DNA of 64,000 bases from Candidatus Omnitrophota bacterium (lineage in GTDB: Bacteria; Omnitrophota; Gorgyraeia; 2-01-FULL-45-10). The notes beneath the pieces were generated by a model, which was not told where the DNA came from, made no database searches, and saw only the letters and a program-made list of their open reading frames with translations. The stretch covers positions 6,067-70,066 of the forward strand of contig JAGVGJ010000018.1 in the NCBI GenBank assembly GCA_020057115.1, written 5' to 3'. Position numbers and translations under genes: made by a program. Each line of letters starts with the position of its first letter. Positions within the stretch are counted from its first letter, which is position 1. Positions 9,517 through 22,679 of this stretch are shown here, piece after piece.

Positions 9517-11520
9517 CTACATGGAGACTGGGTCGACGTCGACAGCGATGAGGACGCCGTGGGGTTTTTTGAAGGTTGACTGAACGTCCCTCAGGAGCTT
9601 ACACATGTAGAGGCGCTCTTTGTGTTTGAGGAGCATGTTATAGCGGTAGTATCCGCGCATGCGCGATATGGGCGCCGGCGCGGGTCCTGAGAGCATCATC
9701 TCAGGATCCTTCTGGCGGATCGCGGCGGCAAGCTCCGCAGCTGCATTTTGCGCAACTTCATCATTGCGCGCCCTCACCGTCAACTTTGTAAGATTTATGA
9801 ATGGCGGGAACAGGAGTTCTTTTCTCGTGATTATCTCCTCTTCGTAAAATTTATCATAATCGTGTTTGGACGCGGTCTGTATGGCGTAATGTTCGGGCGT
9901 GTATGTCTGGACGATTACCTCGCCTCCGTGGTCGCCCCGCCCTGCCCTTCCCGCGACCTGGGTAAGGAGATTGAACGTGCGCTCGCTGGACCTGAAATCA
10001 GGGATATTGAGGCTCACGTCTGCCGAGACGACGCCTACGAGCGTCACCTCCGGGAAGTCGAGCCCCTTGGCTATCATCTGAGTGCCGACGAGCATGCTCG
10101 TGTCGCCCACCTTGAAATCTCCGAGTATCTGTTCATGCGAGCCTGCCTTAGAGGTCGTGTCGGAATCCATCCTCGCTATCTTAGCCTGCGGGAAGTTGCG
10201 GCTCACCTCAGACTCTACCTTCTCGGTCCCGAGTCCGAAATAGCTTATGTAGGCGCTTTTACATTTAGGGCATATGTCGGGCGGCGCCGCTTTGTAGTCG
10301 CAGTAGTGGCAGACGAGCCGCTTATCATCAAAATGGTAGACCATCGAAGTGTCGCACCTCTTGCACTTCATCACGAATCCGCACTTCTTGCAGTTTATGA
10401 AGGTCGAAAAGCCGCGCCTGTTCAGGAATATTATCGCCTGCTTGCCGTTCTTTAAGGTCCTCTCCATCGCCTCAAGAAGAACGCGCGAAAATATGGCGAT
10501 GCGCTTTCGCGTCTCAAGCTCCATCCTCATGTCGACTATCTTCACTTTGGGAAGAAGCCTCTCTTCGATCCTCTTGGTCAGCCTTATATGTTTATAATGG
10601 CCGTGTTTTGCCTTGTAATAGGATTCCAATGACGGCGTCGCGCTTCCGAGTATAAGCGGGCAATTGTTGAGGCGGGCGCGCTCTTCTGCGACATCGCGCG
10701 CATGGTAGCGCGGGACATCGTCCTGCTTGTATGATGTCTCGTGCTCCTCGTCTATGATTATGAGGCCGAGGTTATCCATGGGGCTGAAGATGGCCGAGCG
10801 CGCGCCAACGACGATCGACGCCCTTCCGTCTTTTATCTTCTTCCATTCTATGAATCGCCTGGCAGGGGTGAGTTTGGAATGTATGACGGCGACATGATGT
10901 CCGAACCGCGAAACGAACCTCTCAACGGTCTGGGGGGTGAGCGATATCTCCGGGACGAGCATTATCGCCTGCCTGCCCAGCTTTAAGACCTCGTCGATAG
11001 CCTGCAAATACACCTCGGTCTTGCCGCTCGCCGTTATGCCGTGAAGAAGGTATGTCTTGTGCTCTTTCTTCTGTATGGATTCGTTGATGGCCTTGAGGGC
11101 CTTCGACTGCTCTTCGGTAAGGTCGTGGGGAACCGATGACTTATGATCCTCTACTTTTATATGACTATCCTTTATCCTCGTGCCGATCTCAAGCTTCCCC
11201 TTCTTTATGCCTCCCGGGATGGCCGCCTCTATCGCCTCGCCCCATGAGCAGAAATAATTATCCTTGATCCAATGGGTGAGTTTAAGCATCTCGTCTGAGA
11301 GTAGCGGCTCTTTATCGATGACCGAAATTATCTCCTTAAGCTCTCTGGAGGTGTCTACCTCGTCGCCCAGACCCACGACATAGCCTACGACCCTTCTGGG
11401 GCCAAATGGGACAAAGACACGCTTGCCGATAGCGATCTGGTCTTGCGATAGGTCTGGGATCTTGTATTGGAATGTTCGGTCGAGCGGAAGCGAGATGGCG
11501 ATGTCGGCGAATTTATTCAT
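9517..11520 (-). CDS. priA: Primosomal protein N' (replication restart helicase PriA)
   Basis: 667 aa with a Walker A motif (GITASGKTEVYL), a DEEH box (IIIDEEHETSY), the Cys-rich zinc-binding insertion (CKKCGF…CKRCD…CHYCDY…CPKC) and a helicase C-terminal domain. Confidence 0.9.
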   Translation of the reverse strand: MNKFADIAISLPLDRTFQYKIPDLSQDQIAIGKRVFVPFGPRRVVGYVVGLGDEVDTSRELKEIISVIDKEPLLSDEMLKLTHWIKDNYFCSWGEAIEAAIPGGIKKGKLEIGTRIKDSHIKVEDHKSSVPHDLTEEQSKALKAINESIQKKEHKTYLLHGITASGKTEVYLQAIDEVLKLGRQAIMLVPEISLTPQTVERFVSRFGHHVAVIHSKLTPARRFIEWKKIKDGRASIVVGARSAIFSPMDNLGLIIIDEEHETSYKQDDVPRYHARDVAEERARLNNCPLILGSATPSLESYYKAKHGHYKHIRLTKRIEERLLPKVKIVDMRMELETRKRIAIFSRVLLEAMERTLKNGKQAIIFLNRRGFSTFINCKKCGFVMKCKRCDTSMVYHFDDKRLVCHYCDYKAAPPDICPKCKSAYISYFGLGTEKVESEVSRNFPQAKIARMDSDTTSKAGSHEQILGDFKVGDTSMLVGTQMIAKGLDFPEVTLVGVVSADVSLNIPDFRSSERTFNLLTQVAGRAGRGDHGGEVIVQTYTPEHYAIQTASKHDYDKFYEEEIITRKELLFPPFINLTKLTVRARNDEVAQNAAAELAAAIRQKDPEMMLSGPAPAPISRMRGYYRYNMLLKHKERLYMCKLLRDVQSTFKKPHGVLIAVDVDPVSM

Positions 11521-19410: not shown

Positions 19411-20039
19411 CTCTTTGCCACCACTATATATTGCTCCGTCAAATAATCGCTTAAGGCGCCCCTAAGCATCTTGTTGATGAACTTTTTTGATTTCGAACCT
19501 GCGAGCTTCTTCCTGATATTGACTATCTCAAGCTCCGCGTCCTTAAGCAGTTCCTCTATGTTATGAAGCGCGAAGAAGCGCAGATGCGTCTTATCGAAGA
19601 CTCCTCGATCCGTATAGTCCCACTTCTTCTTCCACAGCATCTTTATCGTCCTGTAATGGGCGACATTGGGTATGCTGATGACAACATGCCCCCCCGGCTT
19701 AATAAATTCCCGATGCCTGATGATAAGGCTCCACGGGTCTATCAGGTGCTCGAGCACATCGCCGTAGATTATGCAGTCAAAATACCCTTTTGAGAACGGA
19801 AGCTCAAGCGTCTCTACGTTGCCTACTATGACCTTGTCCAGATTGGCCTTCGCCTGCTCGGCCGCGTCATTCATTATCTCGATACCTGTGACCTCGACCC
19901 GGGAACCGCGTTTCTCTTTTATCGCGCGGCCCGTCAGGCCTGCGCCGCACCCGACCTCCAGGATCTTAAGCGCCCCTTCAGGCAGGACGTCGATTATGTC
20001 ATCCCTTATGGCCGTATAATATTCCGGTTTCTTTTTCAT
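19407..20039 (-). CDS. Class I SAM-dependent methyltransferase
   Basis: 210 aa with a glycine-rich motif I (LEVGCGAGLTG) and an acidic motif II (DCIIYGDVLEH). Confidence 0.75.
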   Translation of the reverse strand: MKKKPEYYTAIRDDIIDVLPEGALKILEVGCGAGLTGRAIKEKRGSRVEVTGIEIMNDAAEQAKANLDKVIVGNVETLELPFSKGYFDCIIYGDVLEHLIDPWSLIIRHREFIKPGGHVVISIPNVAHYRTIKMLWKKKWDYTDRGVFDKTHLRFFALHNIEELLKDAELEIVNIRKKLAGSKSKKFINKMLRGALSDYLTEQYIVVAKR

Positions 20040-20863
20040 TTTTTATTCAGCTTTCCGTAGCATAGCTCTCTATACTTTGCCCATTTCATGAAATTGATAA
20101 ATGAAAAGAGTATCCCGAAGACAAGGCCGTAAAAACCTTCCTTATGCCCCTGTTTCTTAACGTATGATTTCCAGAACATCTTAAGCGATTTGCCTATCAT
20201 ATTCTTGCGGATGGCCTTTTCCGGCAATATGCCTTCGGTCTTGACCAGCTCCTCGGCGGCGATATCCGTGTAGCGGTTCTGCCTGGCGACGAACTGGCCT
20301 ATGCTATCGAAAGGATAATGCTCGATATCTCCGTCGATAGTGCCCATCCTGCCTTTATATACAGGCACTTCGTGTACCACCCCTTCGTACTTTACAGCTT
20401 TGCGGTTTATCAGATTAGGTATAAAGTGGTGGAATCCTCCGTGGTCCATTGGATGGCCCAAAAAGAAGTTCTTGCGCCTGAATTTATAGACCACGATATC
20501 TGTGCCGGCATCTCTTGCGATCGCATCTTCGCACTTCTTCTTGAAATCATCGGTAACAACATCGTCGGCGTCAAGTTGAAGGACCCAGTCATTTCTGGCC
20601 GTATCATTGCCGATATTTCTATCATCGGCGAATGCTCCGGTGAACTTATGCGGTACTACCTTGGCGCTGTATGATGCACATATCTCATGCGTGCGGTCCG
20701 TGCTTAAGCCGTCCACGACTATGACCTCATCGGCCCAACCGGTGATGCTTTTAAGGCAGTTGCCTATCTTCTTCTCTTCGTTCTTTGCGATTATGACAGC
20801 GGATATTTTATTTTTCATTTTTCCCCGGACCCTGGACCCTTGCCCCTTGACCCTCTTTTGCAT
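20036..20863 (-). CDS. GT2 family glycosyltransferase, paralog a
   Basis: The more likely start is the internal Met at 20817 (MKNKISAVIIAKNEE…DAD), because GGAGA abuts the 20863 ATG with no spacer. It is a GT-A fold paralog of the next gene. Confidence 0.7.
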   Translation of the reverse strand: MQKRVKGQGSRVRGKMKNKISAVIIAKNEEKKIGNCLKSITGWADEVIVVDGLSTDRTHEICASYSAKVVPHKFTGAFADDRNIGNDTARNDWVLQLDADDVVTDDFKKKCEDAIARDAGTDIVVYKFRRKNFFLGHPMDHGGFHHFIPNLINRKAVKYEGVVHEVPVYKGRMGTIDGDIEHYPFDSIGQFVARQNRYTDIAAEELVKTEGILPEKAIRKNMIGKSLKMFWKSYVKKQGHKEGFYGLVFGILFSFINFMKWAKYRELCYGKLNKK

Positions 20864-21611
20864 TCTCCAACATTTCTTTGTATTTAATGTAACTCATGAA
20901 CTGGTATGTCGCGCCGGCCCACGATACTACATATCCGAGAAGCCCATCCTTGAAGCCGCCCTTCTGGACATATGCTTTAAGAAAACGGCTCGCGGCCTTC
21001 CTCTTCATCTTTATGAAATTCACCGGCCGGCGCTCTTTGAACCACTTCTTCGCTTCGAGAGTCGTCTGGTTATTAAGGCTTATCAGGAAATCGTGGTAGT
21101 CCTTATATGAATAATGAACAATATCGCTCTTAAGGTGCCCGCATGTCCCGTCGATAAATACCCTGGGATGGACTTCCGCCTCTTCATACTTAAAACAGCT
21201 CTTATCGAACAGCCTCACCTTCGGTGCAGGATACCATCCGGCGTATCTTATCCAGCGCTTGCCTATATATGTCTTTATCGGGATCGTATATGCCTTATGT
21301 TCCATCTTGCTATATAATAGCGCCCTTAACACCTCCGCCAGTTCCGGGCTTATTCTTTCATCGGCATCAAGGCTCAATACCCACGTATTTCTGGCAAGGC
21401 TATAAGCATAATTACGATGCCTTCCTTCGATGTCCATCTTCCGGGTAAACACCTTATCCGTATACCGCTTTGCTATTTCAATGGTCTTGTCCGTAGAATT
21501 ATCGTCAAGCACCACTATCTCATCGGCGAACTGGGCCGACTTCAGGCACAGAGCGATATTATCTTCTTCATTCTTAGTTATTACGACAATTGATATCCGA
21601 ACCTTTTCCAT
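20808..21611 (-). CDS. GT2 family glycosyltransferase, paralog b
   Basis: 267 aa (MEKVRISIVVITKNEE…DDNSTD…DAD). The Gly/Gln-rich C-terminal tail is encoded by repeat R1. Confidence 0.7.
   Translation of the reverse strand: MEKVRISIVVITKNEEDNIALCLKSAQFADEIVVLDDNSTDKTIEIAKRYTDKVFTRKMDIEGRHRNYAYSLARNTWVLSLDADERISPELAEVLRALLYSKMEHKAYTIPIKTYIGKRWIRYAGWYPAPKVRLFDKSCFKYEEAEVHPRVFIDGTCGHLKSDIVHYSYKDYHDFLISLNNQTTLEAKKWFKERRPVNFIKMKRKAASRFLKAYVQKGGFKDGLLGYVVSWAGATYQFMSYIKYKEMLENAKEGQGARVQGPGKNEK
20825..20854. repeat. Heptanucleotide (AGGGTCC on the coding strand) repeat block R1, 8-37 nt upstream of the GT2 paralog-a start
   Basis: ccggaccctggacccttgccccttgaccct is 28/30 nt identical to 21627-21656. 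It lies within the C-terminal tail codons (…EGQGARVQGPGKNEK) of GT2 paralog b. Confidence 0.7.
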
Positions 21612-21626
21612 TATCTCCCCTATTTT

Positions 21627-21656
21627 CTGGACCCTGGACCCTTGCCCCTGGACCCT
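21627..21656. repeat. Heptanucleotide repeat block R2 (ggaccct ggaccct tgcccct ggaccct) in the 45-nt spacer upstream of the GT2 paralog-b start
   Basis: Four tandem 7-mers, one of them variant, directly between the TAA of 21657..22679 and the ATG at 21611. Confidence 0.7.
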
Positions 21657-22679
21657 TTAATAATATCTTACCTTCGCTCTGTGGATGAACCCGAGCTTAT
21701 CCATGACTCGCCCGAACACTTCATTTCCCACATATATCTCATCGAACTTCTTCTTCTTTTTTAATATCCTGAAAGCGGACTTAATATAATAATTATCCTG
21801 ATCGAGGCTCACCTTTATTATATTCGAATGTTCCGGCATGGCCACCGCATCCTTAAAGAAGAACCATACCCAGTTGCCGAGCCTTGCGAGCTTCAATGAT
21901 TCGACTTCGAGACGCTTCAGCTCATTATCATCGCAGGCATCGAGCACATAGGCGATCCTTCTGGGCTTTCCCCACCTGGTCTCGAATATCTCCCTGTTGC
22001 GCTCAAAATCCTCGTTAAACGTCTTCAAGAGTTTGAACGACGCATTCTCCCTGTGATAGACATACGCGCCGCAGGCCCTGACGCATTTAAATCCTTCTTT
22101 AACGGCCCTTCTCGAGTAGTCGGTATCCTCGAAGTTCCCCATGCCGTATATCTCGTCGAACGCGCCTATCCTGTTTATAACTTCGCGCTTAATAAGCATG
22201 CAAAACCCGGTTACAGCGCCCAGCTCTGCGGACCTGTCGGACTCTTTCTTAAGCCTGTGGGCGTACAGCTCGACCGGCTCTCCGGGGTTAGGCCGCTGGC
22301 CTAGATTATTGCTCGAAGGGTTGACCAGGCCTGTCTCTTTCGAGCGGCCCGCTATATCTATCATCGTCTTAAGCCAGCCGTCATAGACTATCGTATCATT
22401 GTTAAGAAGGCAGACATACGGCGCGTCCGAAAGTTCCATCCCTTTATTCACTGCCTTTATGAAGCCTAGATTATTCTCATTTCTTGCGACTTTAACGAGC
22501 GGCTTCTTCAGGGCTTCCAGCTTCTCGAGATAATCTTTTGTCGGCGCGTCGCTCGCATTATCGATCATGATAAGCCGATAATCGACTTCGGTTGTATTCC
22601 TGAATATCGACTCGATGCAGTCCCTGGTGAACTCAAGCTGGTTCCATACAGGTATTATTATGTCGCATTCCGTCATCAT
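21657..22679 (-). CDS. GT2 family glycosyltransferase with a C-terminal extension, first of a tandem triplet
   Basis: 340 aa carrying DIIIPVWNQ…IDNASD…NNDT…EDTDYS motifs. Confidence 0.75.
   Translation of the reverse strand: MMTECDIIIPVWNQLEFTRDCIESIFRNTTEVDYRLIMIDNASDAPTKDYLEKLEALKKPLVKVARNENNLGFIKAVNKGMELSDAPYVCLLNNDTIVYDGWLKTMIDIAGRSKETGLVNPSSNNLGQRPNPGEPVELYAHRLKKESDRSAELGAVTGFCMLIKREVINRIGAFDEIYGMGNFEDTDYSRRAVKEGFKCVRACGAYVYHRENASFKLLKTFNEDFERNREIFETRWGKPRRIAYVLDACDDNELKRLEVESLKLARLGNWVWFFFKDAVAMPEHSNIIKVSLDQDNYYIKSAFRILKKKKKFDEIYVGNEVFGRVMDKLGFIHRAKVRYY

Follow-up and report, generated by a model that had tools for sequence, protein, structure and literature searches.

The GT2 locus and its two heptamer blocks

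The window, meaning the whole stretch of DNA analysed (64 kb), includes a large glycan-biosynthesis cluster in which three glycosyltransferase genes follow one another on the minus strand. All three encode family 2 enzymes (GT2, Pfam Glycos_transf_2), and two blocks built from 7-nt units are found at their junctions. The features of this region, given in the 5' to 3' order of the minus strand, are the following:

21657..22679, minus strand: ORF of the 340-aa GT2 (PF00535, E=4.8e-23), with its TAA stop at 21659-21657 directly before copy B
21627..21656, minus strand: copy B, units AGGGTCC, AGGGGCA, AGGGTCC, AGGGTCC and a final AG; four G-tracts; intergenic
20808..21611, minus strand: ORF of GT2a, the 267-aa GT2; Shine-Dalgarno AGGGGAG at 21621-21615, ATG at 21611-21609, TAA at 20810-20808
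20823..20854, minus strand: copy A, units AGGGTCA, AGGGGCA, AGGGTCC, AGGGTCC and a final GGGG; five G-tracts; codes for part of the GT2a C-terminal tail
20036..20818, minus strand: ORF of GT2b, the 260-aa GT2; ATG at 20818-20816

The earlier note on this DNA had described two nearly identical blocks of tandem 7-mers, one of them intergenic and the other within the tail codons of the upstream paralog, and this description was confirmed for copies B and A, respectively. The blocks at 20825-20854 and 21627-21656 are identical at 28 of 30 nt, with AGGGTCC, AGGGGCA and AGGGTCA as the units on the coding strand. Read on that (minus) strand, copy B (21656 to 21627) is AGGGTCCAGGGGCAAGGGTCCAGGGTCCAG and copy A (20854 to 20825) is AGGGTCAAGGGGCAAGGGTCCAGGGTCCGG, and both have the unit order GGGTC(A/C)A, GGGGCAA, GGGTCCA, GGGTCC... 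Tandem Repeats Finder reported the two copies as period-7 arrays of 4.3-4.6 copies. A 28-mer search allowing up to 3 mismatches found these two sites only in the 64-kb window, and none in 100 shuffles. Both copies also fit the regular expression for a G-quadruplex (G4), which in copy B corresponds to a canonical motif at 21632-21655.

Concerning their position, copy B begins 1 nt past the TAA of the 340-aa GT2 and ends 15 nt short of the GT2a ATG. It is followed by 5 nt, the separate AGGGGAG Shine-Dalgarno (SD) sequence, 3 nt and then the ATG. Copy A is located within the last 15 or so codons of GT2a (EGQGARVQGPGKNEK*), where the array corresponds to codons 253-263 of 267. The block ends 8 nt ahead of the GT2b ATG, the GT2a stop overlaps GT2b, and the fifth G-tract (GGGG, 20826-20823) falls 4 nt before that ATG, in the SD position. 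The two blocks had been proposed to occupy the same position upstream of two start codons, which does not hold, since the SD is separate after copy B and lies within the last G-tract of copy A. The feature common to both copies is instead their placement with respect to where the upstream gene ends. The GT2b frame is also open upstream across copy A to an ATG at 20863, which is why a mechanical ORF call lists GT2b with 275 aa.

Regarding other signals, no inverted partner was found within 120 nt of either window copy, both copies being single-armed, and no Rho-independent terminator-like site overlaps either array. Promoter signals at the two arrays did not rise above shuffle level. A search of the window against Rfam 15 gave no match at the gathering threshold, and positions 20600-21900 had none at E<=1.

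A dispersed family of heptamer arrays

The exact 24-mer core GGGTCNAGGGGCAAGGGTCCAGGG is present at 8 genome loci (seven on Nitrospirota MAG contigs and one in Omnitrophota) and on 25 metagenome contigs, where our own estimate of the chance expectation in the genome scan is about 0.02 matches. The flanks of these 33 external loci are unrelated to one another. Because the array itself was the query with which they were fetched, their unit composition and their minimum of four tracts are selection-biased. The dispersal is seen at the level of the lineage, through these 33 loci, and the source genome was sampled as a 64-kb window with two arrays.

The units of the family are GGGTCAA, GGGTCCA and GGGGCAA, of which an array usually has four to five, and their number and order vary continuously in 7-nt steps. 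Several arrays per 8 kb were found at five of the loci (L003, L006, L007, L008 and L019). In the 292 kb examined for tandem repeats there were 63 period-7 arrays, against at most 6 for any other period; 120 kb of Omnitrophota DNA contained 6 period-7 arrays versus one of period 6, and each shuffle gave about 0.2. Among the arrays that had not been selected by the query, a small sample of about 30, four G-tracts were the mode (11 arrays, 0.25 by chance), and the others had three (10 arrays, 6.3 by chance), five (6 arrays) or six tracts (3 arrays). Many arrays in the same genomes consist of heptamers that are unable to form a G4 (GTATTGC, GAAGTCA, AAGAGTT), and therefore the general phenomenon is the heptamer periodicity and not the G4 as such.

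The arrays are anchored to the gene that precedes them. In 21 of 30 assessable arrays, a non-redundant sample with a long sense ORF ending nearby, the core starts between -1 and +10 nt of the sense-strand stop codon, mostly at a distance of 0-7 nt. The distance to the next start codon is scattered (about 18 to 360 nt), and some arrays are located between convergent genes. The genes whose stops they follow are unrelated, with no tie to glycosyltransferases. An inverted partner was found for 21 of 52 arrays (~40%), always in the order G-arm then C-arm, and the hairpins of these pairs have minimum free energies of -25 to -72 kcal/mol. Some of the paired members could act as intrinsic terminators. 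Considering all these data, the two blocks are likely to belong to a dispersed family of G-rich heptanucleotide arrays in Omnitrophota and Nitrospirota, placed after stop codons and driven by slippage.

Repeats of this kind have been described in other bacteria. Rehm et al. (2015, PLoS One) reported G-rich heptameric quadruplex-forming repeats, GGGAATC in Xanthomonas and GGGGAYT in Nostoc PCC 7120 (PMC4692102). Their units are heterogeneous, with four units preferred, and they lie between co-oriented ORFs, nearer the 5' ORF (a mean of 28 nt versus 160 nt downstream), mostly 0-50 bp from the stop on the coding strand, with some overlapping the stop (PMC4692102). They occur in convergent inverted pairs, differ in length from species to species, fold into G4 in vitro and show neither an association with IS or transposable elements nor a link to a functional gene class (PMC4692102). 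The present arrays resemble them in their heterogeneous 7-nt units led by G3-4, the mode of four, the mostly intergenic location between co-oriented ORFs and nearer the 5' one, the convergent pairs, the variation of length and sequence at the junctions and the absence of a gene-class link. They differ in the units themselves (GGGTCAA, GGGTCCA, GGGGCAA) and in the phyla, Omnitrophota and Nitrospirota. The stop anchoring also looks tighter here (mostly 0-7 nt) than the mean of 28 nt in Xanthomonas and Nostoc, and while G4 formation was shown in vitro for those repeats, the present arrays are known from sequence and in silico folding. Both window copies share with the repeats of Rehm et al. the type of unit, at least four G-tracts, the placement at a stop and the variation at the junction.

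In Geobacter metallireducens, four tandem GGGACCG units occur at 49 sites (Gmet_H4##; Aklujkar et al. 2009), which the authors listed as putative regulatory RNA elements, with no analysis of their positions (PMC2700814). These are also multicopy elements of four tandem G-rich heptamers, between and within genes, and GGGACCG is close in composition to GGGTCCA; the unit sequence is different, and the elements were not linked to stop codons there. Moreover, tandem heptamers are known from cyanobacteria as the STRR repeats of Calothrix and Nostoc (ref. 39 in PMC4692102), and TAACTGA direct repeats are found in Beggiatoaceae, Cyanobacteria and Bacteroidetes (MacGregor 2015; PMC4679880). According to the accounts given in these sources, both are lineage-wide intergenic tandem heptamers with several unit types per genome, and one unit can appear in distant phyla by no known transfer mechanism, which is also the picture obtained here. 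Nevertheless, the TAACTGA arrays are not G-rich and lie a few nt upstream of start codons, whereas the present arrays are stop-anchored, and the STRR units, as presented in that account, cannot form a G4.

Length change and origin of the arrays

The best named homologs of GT2a (70-80% identity) all belong to Omnitrophica/Omnitrophota, with conserved synteny, in line with Omnitrophota as the likely source of the window; the best other homolog on record is 82% identical, and there is no near-identical contig among the records. The GT2a orthologs are mostly 250-265 aa long and cover only 93-97% of the query, their tails being hypervariable after ...KYKEML. The GT2a/GT2b pair is kept in the orthologous loci, and in L043 a different gene follows GT2a. 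The tandem duplication of these genes is ancient, given the 32% protein identity of the paralogs and the conservation of the pair.

At the GT2a/GT2b junction, the arrays that align with copy A are (GGGTCAA)x4 in L034, with five G-tracts and all units GGGTCAA, a four-tract variant array in L036 and a different heptamer, (GAAGTCR)x7, in L037. L040 has no array there and neither has L041, which shows only GAGGGCCAAG. At the copy B junction, no array of any kind is present in L036, L037, L040 and L041, and L034 carries a hairpin of a different heptamer. L040 and L041, the closest relatives (79-80% identity), have no array at either junction. Among orthologous Nitrospirota and metagenome loci, L005/L014 and L033 differ by exactly 7 nt (one heptamer), and L013 and L021 by exactly 14 nt (two heptamers). 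Slippage on evolutionary time is therefore real. An invariant copy number and the lack of further occurrences, which the earlier note had named as signs of a simple duplication remnant, were thus the opposite of what was found on both counts.

Slippage alone does not make these tracts a switch. The proposed contingency tract, in which 7-nt slippage would toggle the GT2 genes between expression states and so vary a surface glycan, fits a unit length that is not a multiple of three, a location in a glycan-biosynthesis cluster, orthologous loci one or two heptamers apart and a GT2 junction that, depending on the species, has 0, 4 or 5 tracts or another heptamer. Contingency loci, such as the tetranucleotide tracts in the LOS genes of Haemophilus and Neisseria, consist of long, perfect tracts located in a promoter or a 5' coding region, where they turn the gene on or off. 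The present arrays share with them a non-triplet tandem repeat in or near glycosyltransferase genes whose unit number is changed by slippage. However, simulated changes of +/-1 to 3 units gave tail variants or a GT2a-GT2b fusion and never a truncated GT2: -1 or +2 units in copy A fuse the two ORFs (522 or 529 aa), and the other changes shift the tail and its stop relative to the GT2b start. With one array at the very 3' end of GT2a and the other between genes, none of the length states disables a catalytic domain, and a change of units switches the gene on or off at neither of them. Furthermore, they are short (4-5 units) and imperfect, and short, imperfect simple-sequence repeats have lower slippage rates. 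The family follows the stops of unrelated genes, and phase variation was judged unlikely on the same grounds for the Xanthomonas and Nostoc repeats (PMC4692102). Hence the slipped-strand part of the proposal stands, and its phase-variation part is very unlikely.

A role in ribosome loading was also considered, with (AGGG)n as reiterated SD-like sites at which ribosomes would be recruited or held for the GT2 gene downstream. With one G-U wobble, AGGGG is able to pair with the anti-SD. The terminal GGGG of copy A is at the SD position with no other SD there, and the last array unit is the sole SD-like sequence in L034 and L037 too. On the other hand, GT2a has its own AGGGGAG downstream of copy B, orthologs that lack an array have a simple AAAGGAG within a 12-17 nt spacer, and the family is anchored to the upstream stop and not to the next start, with members that also occur as hairpins and between convergent genes. 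What is left of this proposal is the last G-tract of copy A, weak at best, and for the family as a whole we regard it as highly improbable. Taken together, a GT2-specific regulatory device is not supported.

Copy A probably grew in place by slippage from the seed GAGGGYCAAG at the GT2a 3' end, as suggested by one array-free relative, L041; across species, the units at one junction resemble the local ancestral sequence, which argues for growth in place. Its units are free of stop codons in all sense frames, and copy A was therefore absorbed into the GT2a ORF as a Gly/Gln-rich tail. Copy B, judging from the ortholog comparison, is a lineage-specific, clean insertion of ~30 nt right after the preceding GT2 stop, and no seed for it is visible in the otherwise conserved spacer. 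Copy A, 800 nt away, may have served as its template. The unit order common to both copies could be due to chance (roughly 1 in 13 to 1 in 27 by our own estimate) or to copying.

Such an insertion recalls a small mobile or copied element of the REP/MITE type, a block of ~30 nt that template switching or a trans-acting enzyme would move whole to post-stop sites. The identical 24-mer at unrelated loci in two phyla agrees with it, and the convergent inverted pairs are reminiscent of REP doublets. The REP/BIME elements of enterobacteria, which are single imperfect extragenic palindromes linked to RAYT transposases, are likewise multicopy and located just past stops inside operons, and their paired form is a stable hairpin that could stabilise the upstream mRNA. 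However, REPs are not tandem heptamers, and the window copies are single-armed. Copy B has no terminal inverted repeats and no clear target-site duplication, unit number and order change in 7-nt steps, and the units at one junction match the local ancestral sequence. No hits were obtained in 2.9 million viral contigs, and the published analogues are not tied to IS or transposable elements (PMC4692102). An assignment to the REP/MITE-type repeats was rejected on these features, and transposition or copying as whole blocks has little chance of being the explanation.

The scar of a tandem segmental duplication, in which the blocks would be a leftover of the upstream region copied together with the GT2 gene, would account for two direct-orientation copies ~800 nt apart, each upstream of an adjacent GT2 paralog, but it is refuted, since the DNA identity of the blocks is 93% while the paralogs share 32% of their protein sequence, the identity between the two junctions ends at the array edges with flanks that do not align, the GT2a/GT2b pair is conserved in orthologous loci, yet both junctions are array-free in the closest relatives, L040 and L041, and the 24-mer recurs at 33 unrelated loci.

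Possible effect on the mRNA and significance

Gene order suggests that both copies are transcribed inside a long single-strand operon. With the G4 parameters of ViennaRNA, the G4 is favoured in copy A (-13.5 vs -8.2 kcal/mol), and in copy B an imperfect hairpin is favoured or at least as good (-12.4 kcal/mol). The folding Z-scores of the window copies against shuffles are only -1.6 to -2.2. Each copy, with at least four G-tracts, is thus predicted to form a G-quadruplex or an imperfect hairpin in the polycistronic mRNA. This structure would start within the footprint of the ribosome terminating on the upstream gene, and the terminating ribosome could open it, which would make the downstream GT2 dependent for its translation on that of the upstream gene. 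The structure could also, or instead, shield the upstream mRNA segment from 3' decay. A modest structural effect on the polycistronic mRNA, by coupling and/or protection from 3' decay, would be the likeliest effect of the arrays, if they have any, and it is proposed only tentatively. Alternatively, slippage leaves the arrays behind as by-products that are tolerated. Slippage that is purely neutral would not easily explain the stop anchoring, the four-tract mode and the strictly convergent pairing, seen in about 50 arrays.

A more daring version, which we consider doubtful, is that the arrays are read at translation termination. A G-quadruplex, or a complex with a heptamer-binding protein, would sit 0-7 nt past the stop and be opened by each terminating ribosome, setting the coupling or the segmental mRNA stability in very long operons. 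If this were true, the presence of all three units in both Omnitrophota and Nitrospirota would mean that the phyla have a trans-acting factor in common, or that a mechanism which seeds arrays at stops has spread horizontally. Copy B, whose 30 nt were inserted without a seed directly behind a TAA, would then illustrate this seeding.

As regards the glycan cluster, nothing found at these arrays speaks for a switch dedicated to the GT2 genes. By their sequence features, the arrays match a known bacterial repeat class, the G-rich, quadruplex-capable heptamers. Tandem heptamers have been noted since the cyanobacterial STRRs, and then in Xanthomonas, Nostoc, Geobacter and Beggiatoaceae. The present family extends this class to two poorly studied, mostly uncultured phyla and adds a new set of units, GGGTCAA, GGGTCCA and GGGGCAA. 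It also adds, from about 50 arrays, the very tight anchoring to sense-strand stops, the four-G-tract mode and the strictly convergent pairing. Finally, the arrays affect how genes are read in these phyla. As the GT2b frame is open through copy A to the ATG at 20863, they create spurious N-terminal extensions, and these, together with repeat-encoded C-terminal tails and possible ORF fusions, bear on annotation pipelines and protein-family alignments in Omnitrophota and Nitrospirota.

Two heptamer blocks at the ends of GT2 genes

Two blocks of tandem 7-nt units are located at consecutive boundaries between GT2 genes of the window:

Copy B, 21656 to 21627, minus strand: AGGGTCCAGGGGCAAGGGTCCAGGGTCCAG
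Copy A, 20854 to 20825, minus strand: AGGGTCAAGGGGCAAGGGTCCAGGGTCCGG
RNA forms of the array sequence: r(GGGUCCAGGGGCAAGGGUCCAGGG) and r(GGGUCAAGGGGCAAGGGUCCAGGGUCCGGGG)

The copies are identical at 28 of 30 nt, and Tandem Repeats Finder reported both as period-7 arrays of 4.3-4.6 copies. With up to three mismatches allowed, a 28-mer search of the 64 kb matched these two sites and no others; 100 shuffles gave no match. Hence, the blocks are real, as the earlier note had observed. Their common position, however, is not one relative to the start codons, as it had proposed, but the end of the upstream gene.

Copy B begins 1 nt past the TAA (21659-21657) of a 340-aa GT2 gene and is followed by 5 nt, the Shine-Dalgarno sequence AGGGGAG, 3 nt, and the ATG (21611) of the 267-aa gene GT2a. 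Copy A encodes part of the tail of GT2a (EGQGARVQGPGKNEK*). Its fifth G-tract (GGGG, 20826-20823) lies 4 nt ahead of the ATG (20818) of the next gene, GT2b (260 aa), and the GT2a stop codon (20810-20808) falls inside GT2b, the two genes being overlapping. The GT2b frame stays open across copy A as far as an ATG at 20863 (20816-20863, minus strand), and therefore the mechanical ORF has 275 aa (MQKRVKGQGSRVRGK-MKNK...); the alignment of GT2b with its paralog GT2a starts at MKNK. This open frame probably gives rise to wrongly annotated N-terminal extensions.

Pfam identified five GT2 genes in a row and, after them, a methyltransferase and a B12-binding radical SAM enzyme. The stretch studied in detail (~18-25 kb of the window), where no fewer than five GT2 genes follow one another, is a cluster for glycan biosynthesis. 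It is syntenic with contigs of Omnitrophota MAGs in which the cluster extends to UDG and PriA. Throughout positions 1-64000, all ORFs judged likely genes are on the minus strand, and their stops and starts mostly overlap or abut.

A dispersed array family anchored to stop codons

The exact core GGGTCNAGGGGCAAGGGTCCAGGG was found at eight loci of the species-representative genome collection, seven on contigs from Nitrospirota/Nitrospiraceae/Thermodesulfovibrionales MAGs and one from an Omnitrophota MAG, as well as in 25 metagenome contigs. The scan of this 24-mer against viral contigs gave no match, and nothing therefore points to a phage as vector. Its flanks are unrelated between most loci.

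Period 7 dominates the 292 kb examined, with 63 arrays of at least 2.8 copies versus no more than six for any other period. In the 120 kb of Omnitrophota DNA retrieved independently of the repeat query, there were six period-7 arrays versus one, with 0.2 expected per shuffle. Arrays of other heptamers (such as AAGAGTT x9.9, AGTGACG, TTGAATT, GTATTGC, and GAAGTCA) are present in the same genomes. Composite arrays, with different heptamers back to back, were observed on one Nitrospirae MAG contig (L003:76-196 and L003:5891-6007). These include AGTGACG x4.4 and TTGAATT x4.3 followed by G-type units, and a long (AAGAGTT)x9.9 array adjoins (TCACTCG)x4.7.

The position of the arrays was measured from stop codons, which avoids the ambiguity of start codons. 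Among 52 non-redundant G-rich arrays (units GGGTCAA, GGGTCCA, or GGGGCAA), 30 had, close by, the end of an ORF on the sense strand with 100 codons or more. In 21 of these 30 the array starts between -1 and +10 nt from the stop, the majority at 0-7 nt, and two lie inside the last codons of the ORF. The distance to the next gene ranges from about 18 to 360 nt; the suggestion of a Shine-Dalgarno-like element that loads ribosomes proved marginal. Arrays unselected by the query most often have four G-tracts in register. These data establish a family of arrays that is anchored to stop codons and has four tracts as its mode.

In-register G-tracts per array, observed and by chance
3 G-tracts: 10 arrays observed, 6.3 by chance
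4 G-tracts: 11 arrays observed, 0.25 by chance
5 G-tracts: 6 arrays observed, absent from shuffles
6 G-tracts: 3 arrays observed, absent from shuffles

An inverted C-rich array is present within 120 nt of 21 of the 52 arrays, and the remaining 31, copies A and B among them, are unpaired. In every pair the G-arm comes first and the C-arm second on either strand (convergent), and the reverse order was never seen; the hairpins of paired arrays have minimum free energies of -25 to -72 kcal/mol. Convergent inverted pairs occur in L007, L008, L009, L011, L012, L019, L023, L029, and L031. In L019 each arm is directly 3' of the stop of one of two convergent genes.

Length variation, origin, and candidate roles

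Between orthologous loci, whole units have been gained or lost: compared with L033, one extra heptamer is present in L005 and L014, and compared with L021, two are present in L013. In L011 and L018, the partner arm is made of units that differ in sequence from those of L029. Array length therefore changes in 7-nt steps. The junction between GT2a and GT2b also differs from species to species.

Sequence at the GT2a/GT2b junction in the window and in orthologous Omnitrophota loci
Window: five G-tracts
L034: (GGGTCAA)x4 + GGG
L036: GGGTCAA GGGTCAA GGGGTCA GGG
L037: (GAAGTCR)x7
L040: nothing
L041: only AATGAGGGCCAAGAGAAG (NEGQEK)

Local array-free sequence resembles the array units: GAGGGYCAAG is similar to the GGGTCAA arrays, and GAAGAGAAGG to the GAAGTCA array. 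This likeness suggests growth in place, and on the sequences of these few taxa the arrays may have arisen by slippage from a local seed. Copy B might have been templated from copy A. In another Omnitrophota lineage, the junction orthologous to that of copy A (L037:10754-10804, also L038 and L039) carries (GAAGTCR)x7.3; this array encodes the tail EVGSQKSEVRGQKPGVR, and the Shine-Dalgarno sequence of the next gene comes from its final unit (CAGGAGTCAGA).

GT2a orthologs are conserved as far as ...KYKEML and have hypervariable tails beyond, visibly repeat-encoded in 5 of 120. Reading the sequence, the array units contain a stop codon in no sense frame, and an array can therefore be absorbed into an ORF, as copy A has been into that of GT2a. 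A large subset of the orthologs (among P0006-P0044) shares the conserved Cys-rich terminal tail EPKKE(S/G)CxCCHGKD, a possible small motif for metal binding or lipidation. The GT2a of the window lacks it and has the repeat-encoded tail in its place.

When unit changes were simulated in copy A, the loss of one unit or the gain of two brought GT2a into frame with GT2b, so that the fused ORF had 522 or 529 aa, and the other changes (+1, -2, -3, and +3) altered only the tail (260-274 aa). The earlier note had raised the possibility of a slipped-strand tract acting as a phase switch. The 7-nt steps between orthologs support the mutational part of that reading; the switch is not supported, since none of the simulated changes (±1 to 3 units) truncates a GT2 domain.

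The alternative of a scar left by a tandem GT2 duplication is refuted. GT2a and GT2b share 32% identity over 253 residues, the two junctions can be aligned within the array only (alignment A1), and the closest relatives with available DNA (L040 and L041, 79-80% identity) have an array at neither junction. The gene pair itself is kept in orthologous loci of other Omnitrophota, and the best named GT2a homologs (70-80% identity) all belong to Omnitrophica/Omnitrophota, which makes this the likely phylum of the window. No array was found after GT2a in L043. Upstream of GT2a, the junction in four orthologs consists of no more than a short spacer with SD-like GGAG/GGAA (e.g., TATTATTAAAAAGGAGAACCATG in L041), and the window has TATTATTAA[30-nt array]AAAATAGGGGAGATAATG (alignment A2). 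It follows that copy B was inserted in this lineage specifically, directly 3' of the stop codon. Gene tables show a 132-nt gap before GT2a for P0023 and a 103-nt gap after it for P0013.

Other features were observed in these orthologs. The junction orthologous to that of copy B in the Omnitrophota MAG GCA_964352425.1 (L034:9905-9990) holds a hairpin of a different heptamer, (GTATTGC)x4, a T-rich loop, and (GCAATAC)x5, beginning at the TAG stop of the upstream GT2. An intergenic spacer of L041 (5600-5635) has a 10-N run with ATCGTTATC on both flanks, probably a short tandem repeat that collapsed and left a scaffold gap.

Concerning folding, both copies fit the canonical G4 motif, but the window total of three versus a shuffle mean of 1.2 is no significant excess. 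The third motif (GGGAAGGGCAGGGCGGGG, 9935-9952, minus strand) is non-heptameric and lies inside a 667-aa ORF (9517-11520). ViennaRNA with G4 parameters favoured a G4 in copy A (-13.5 vs -8.2 kcal/mol); for copy B an imperfect hairpin (-12.4) was at least equal to the G4, without discrimination between them. The folding z-scores of the arrays are modest or weak. A putative G4 or hairpin, opened by the terminating ribosome, could affect translation coupling or mRNA stability.

Scanning the surroundings of the arrays for promoters and terminators yielded numbers of sites that differ from the shuffle means by no more than about one standard deviation. At the arrays themselves nothing resembles a terminator, and promoter-like sites do not rise above background; the sole nearby site, a weak promoter-like match (9/12), overlaps copy B on the non-coding strand. 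Rfam returned no match at the gathering threshold in the window, nor any near the arrays at E<=1. On reading the sequence, binding of a CsrA-type protein at GGA was rejected because the units have no GGA in loop context; plus-strand coding over the arrays was rejected because those ORFs are antisense to Pfam-supported genes. Tested as a contingency locus, as the remnant of a duplication, as an intrinsic terminator, and as a REP/MITE element, copies A and B failed each time.

Relation to known heptamer repeats

Heptamer repeats have been described in other bacteria. Geobacter metallireducens has 49 copies of four tandem GGGACCG heptamers (PMC2700814). TAACTGA repeats are common to distant phyla (MacGregor 2015, PMC4679880); they sit just 5' of start codons, unlike the stop-anchored arrays described here. 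The literature search gave nothing relevant for the present repeat sequences, for heptamer repeats of Nitrospirae, or for heptamer or other tandem repeats of Omnitrophica.

The same anatomy as in the window is found in the G-rich heptamers GGGAATC of Xanthomonas and GGGGAYT of Nostoc (Rehm et al. 2015, PMC4692102). These are about 90% intergenic, mostly between co-oriented ORFs, with a mean of 28 nt to the 5' ORF versus 160 nt to the next one. Most lie 0-50 bp from the stop on the coding strand, stop overlaps included. They also form convergent inverted pairs, differ in length between related species, and are tied neither to gene function nor to mobile elements. G4 formation was demonstrated in vitro, phase variation was considered unlikely, and the repeats are functionally unexplained (PMC4692102).

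Copies A and B show every defining feature of this class that could be tested from 64 kb of their genome, and belong, as two local cases, to a family of G-rich heptamer arrays that spans the lineage and lies at 3' gene boundaries. The kind of repeat was already known; what is new here are the units and the phyla that carry them.
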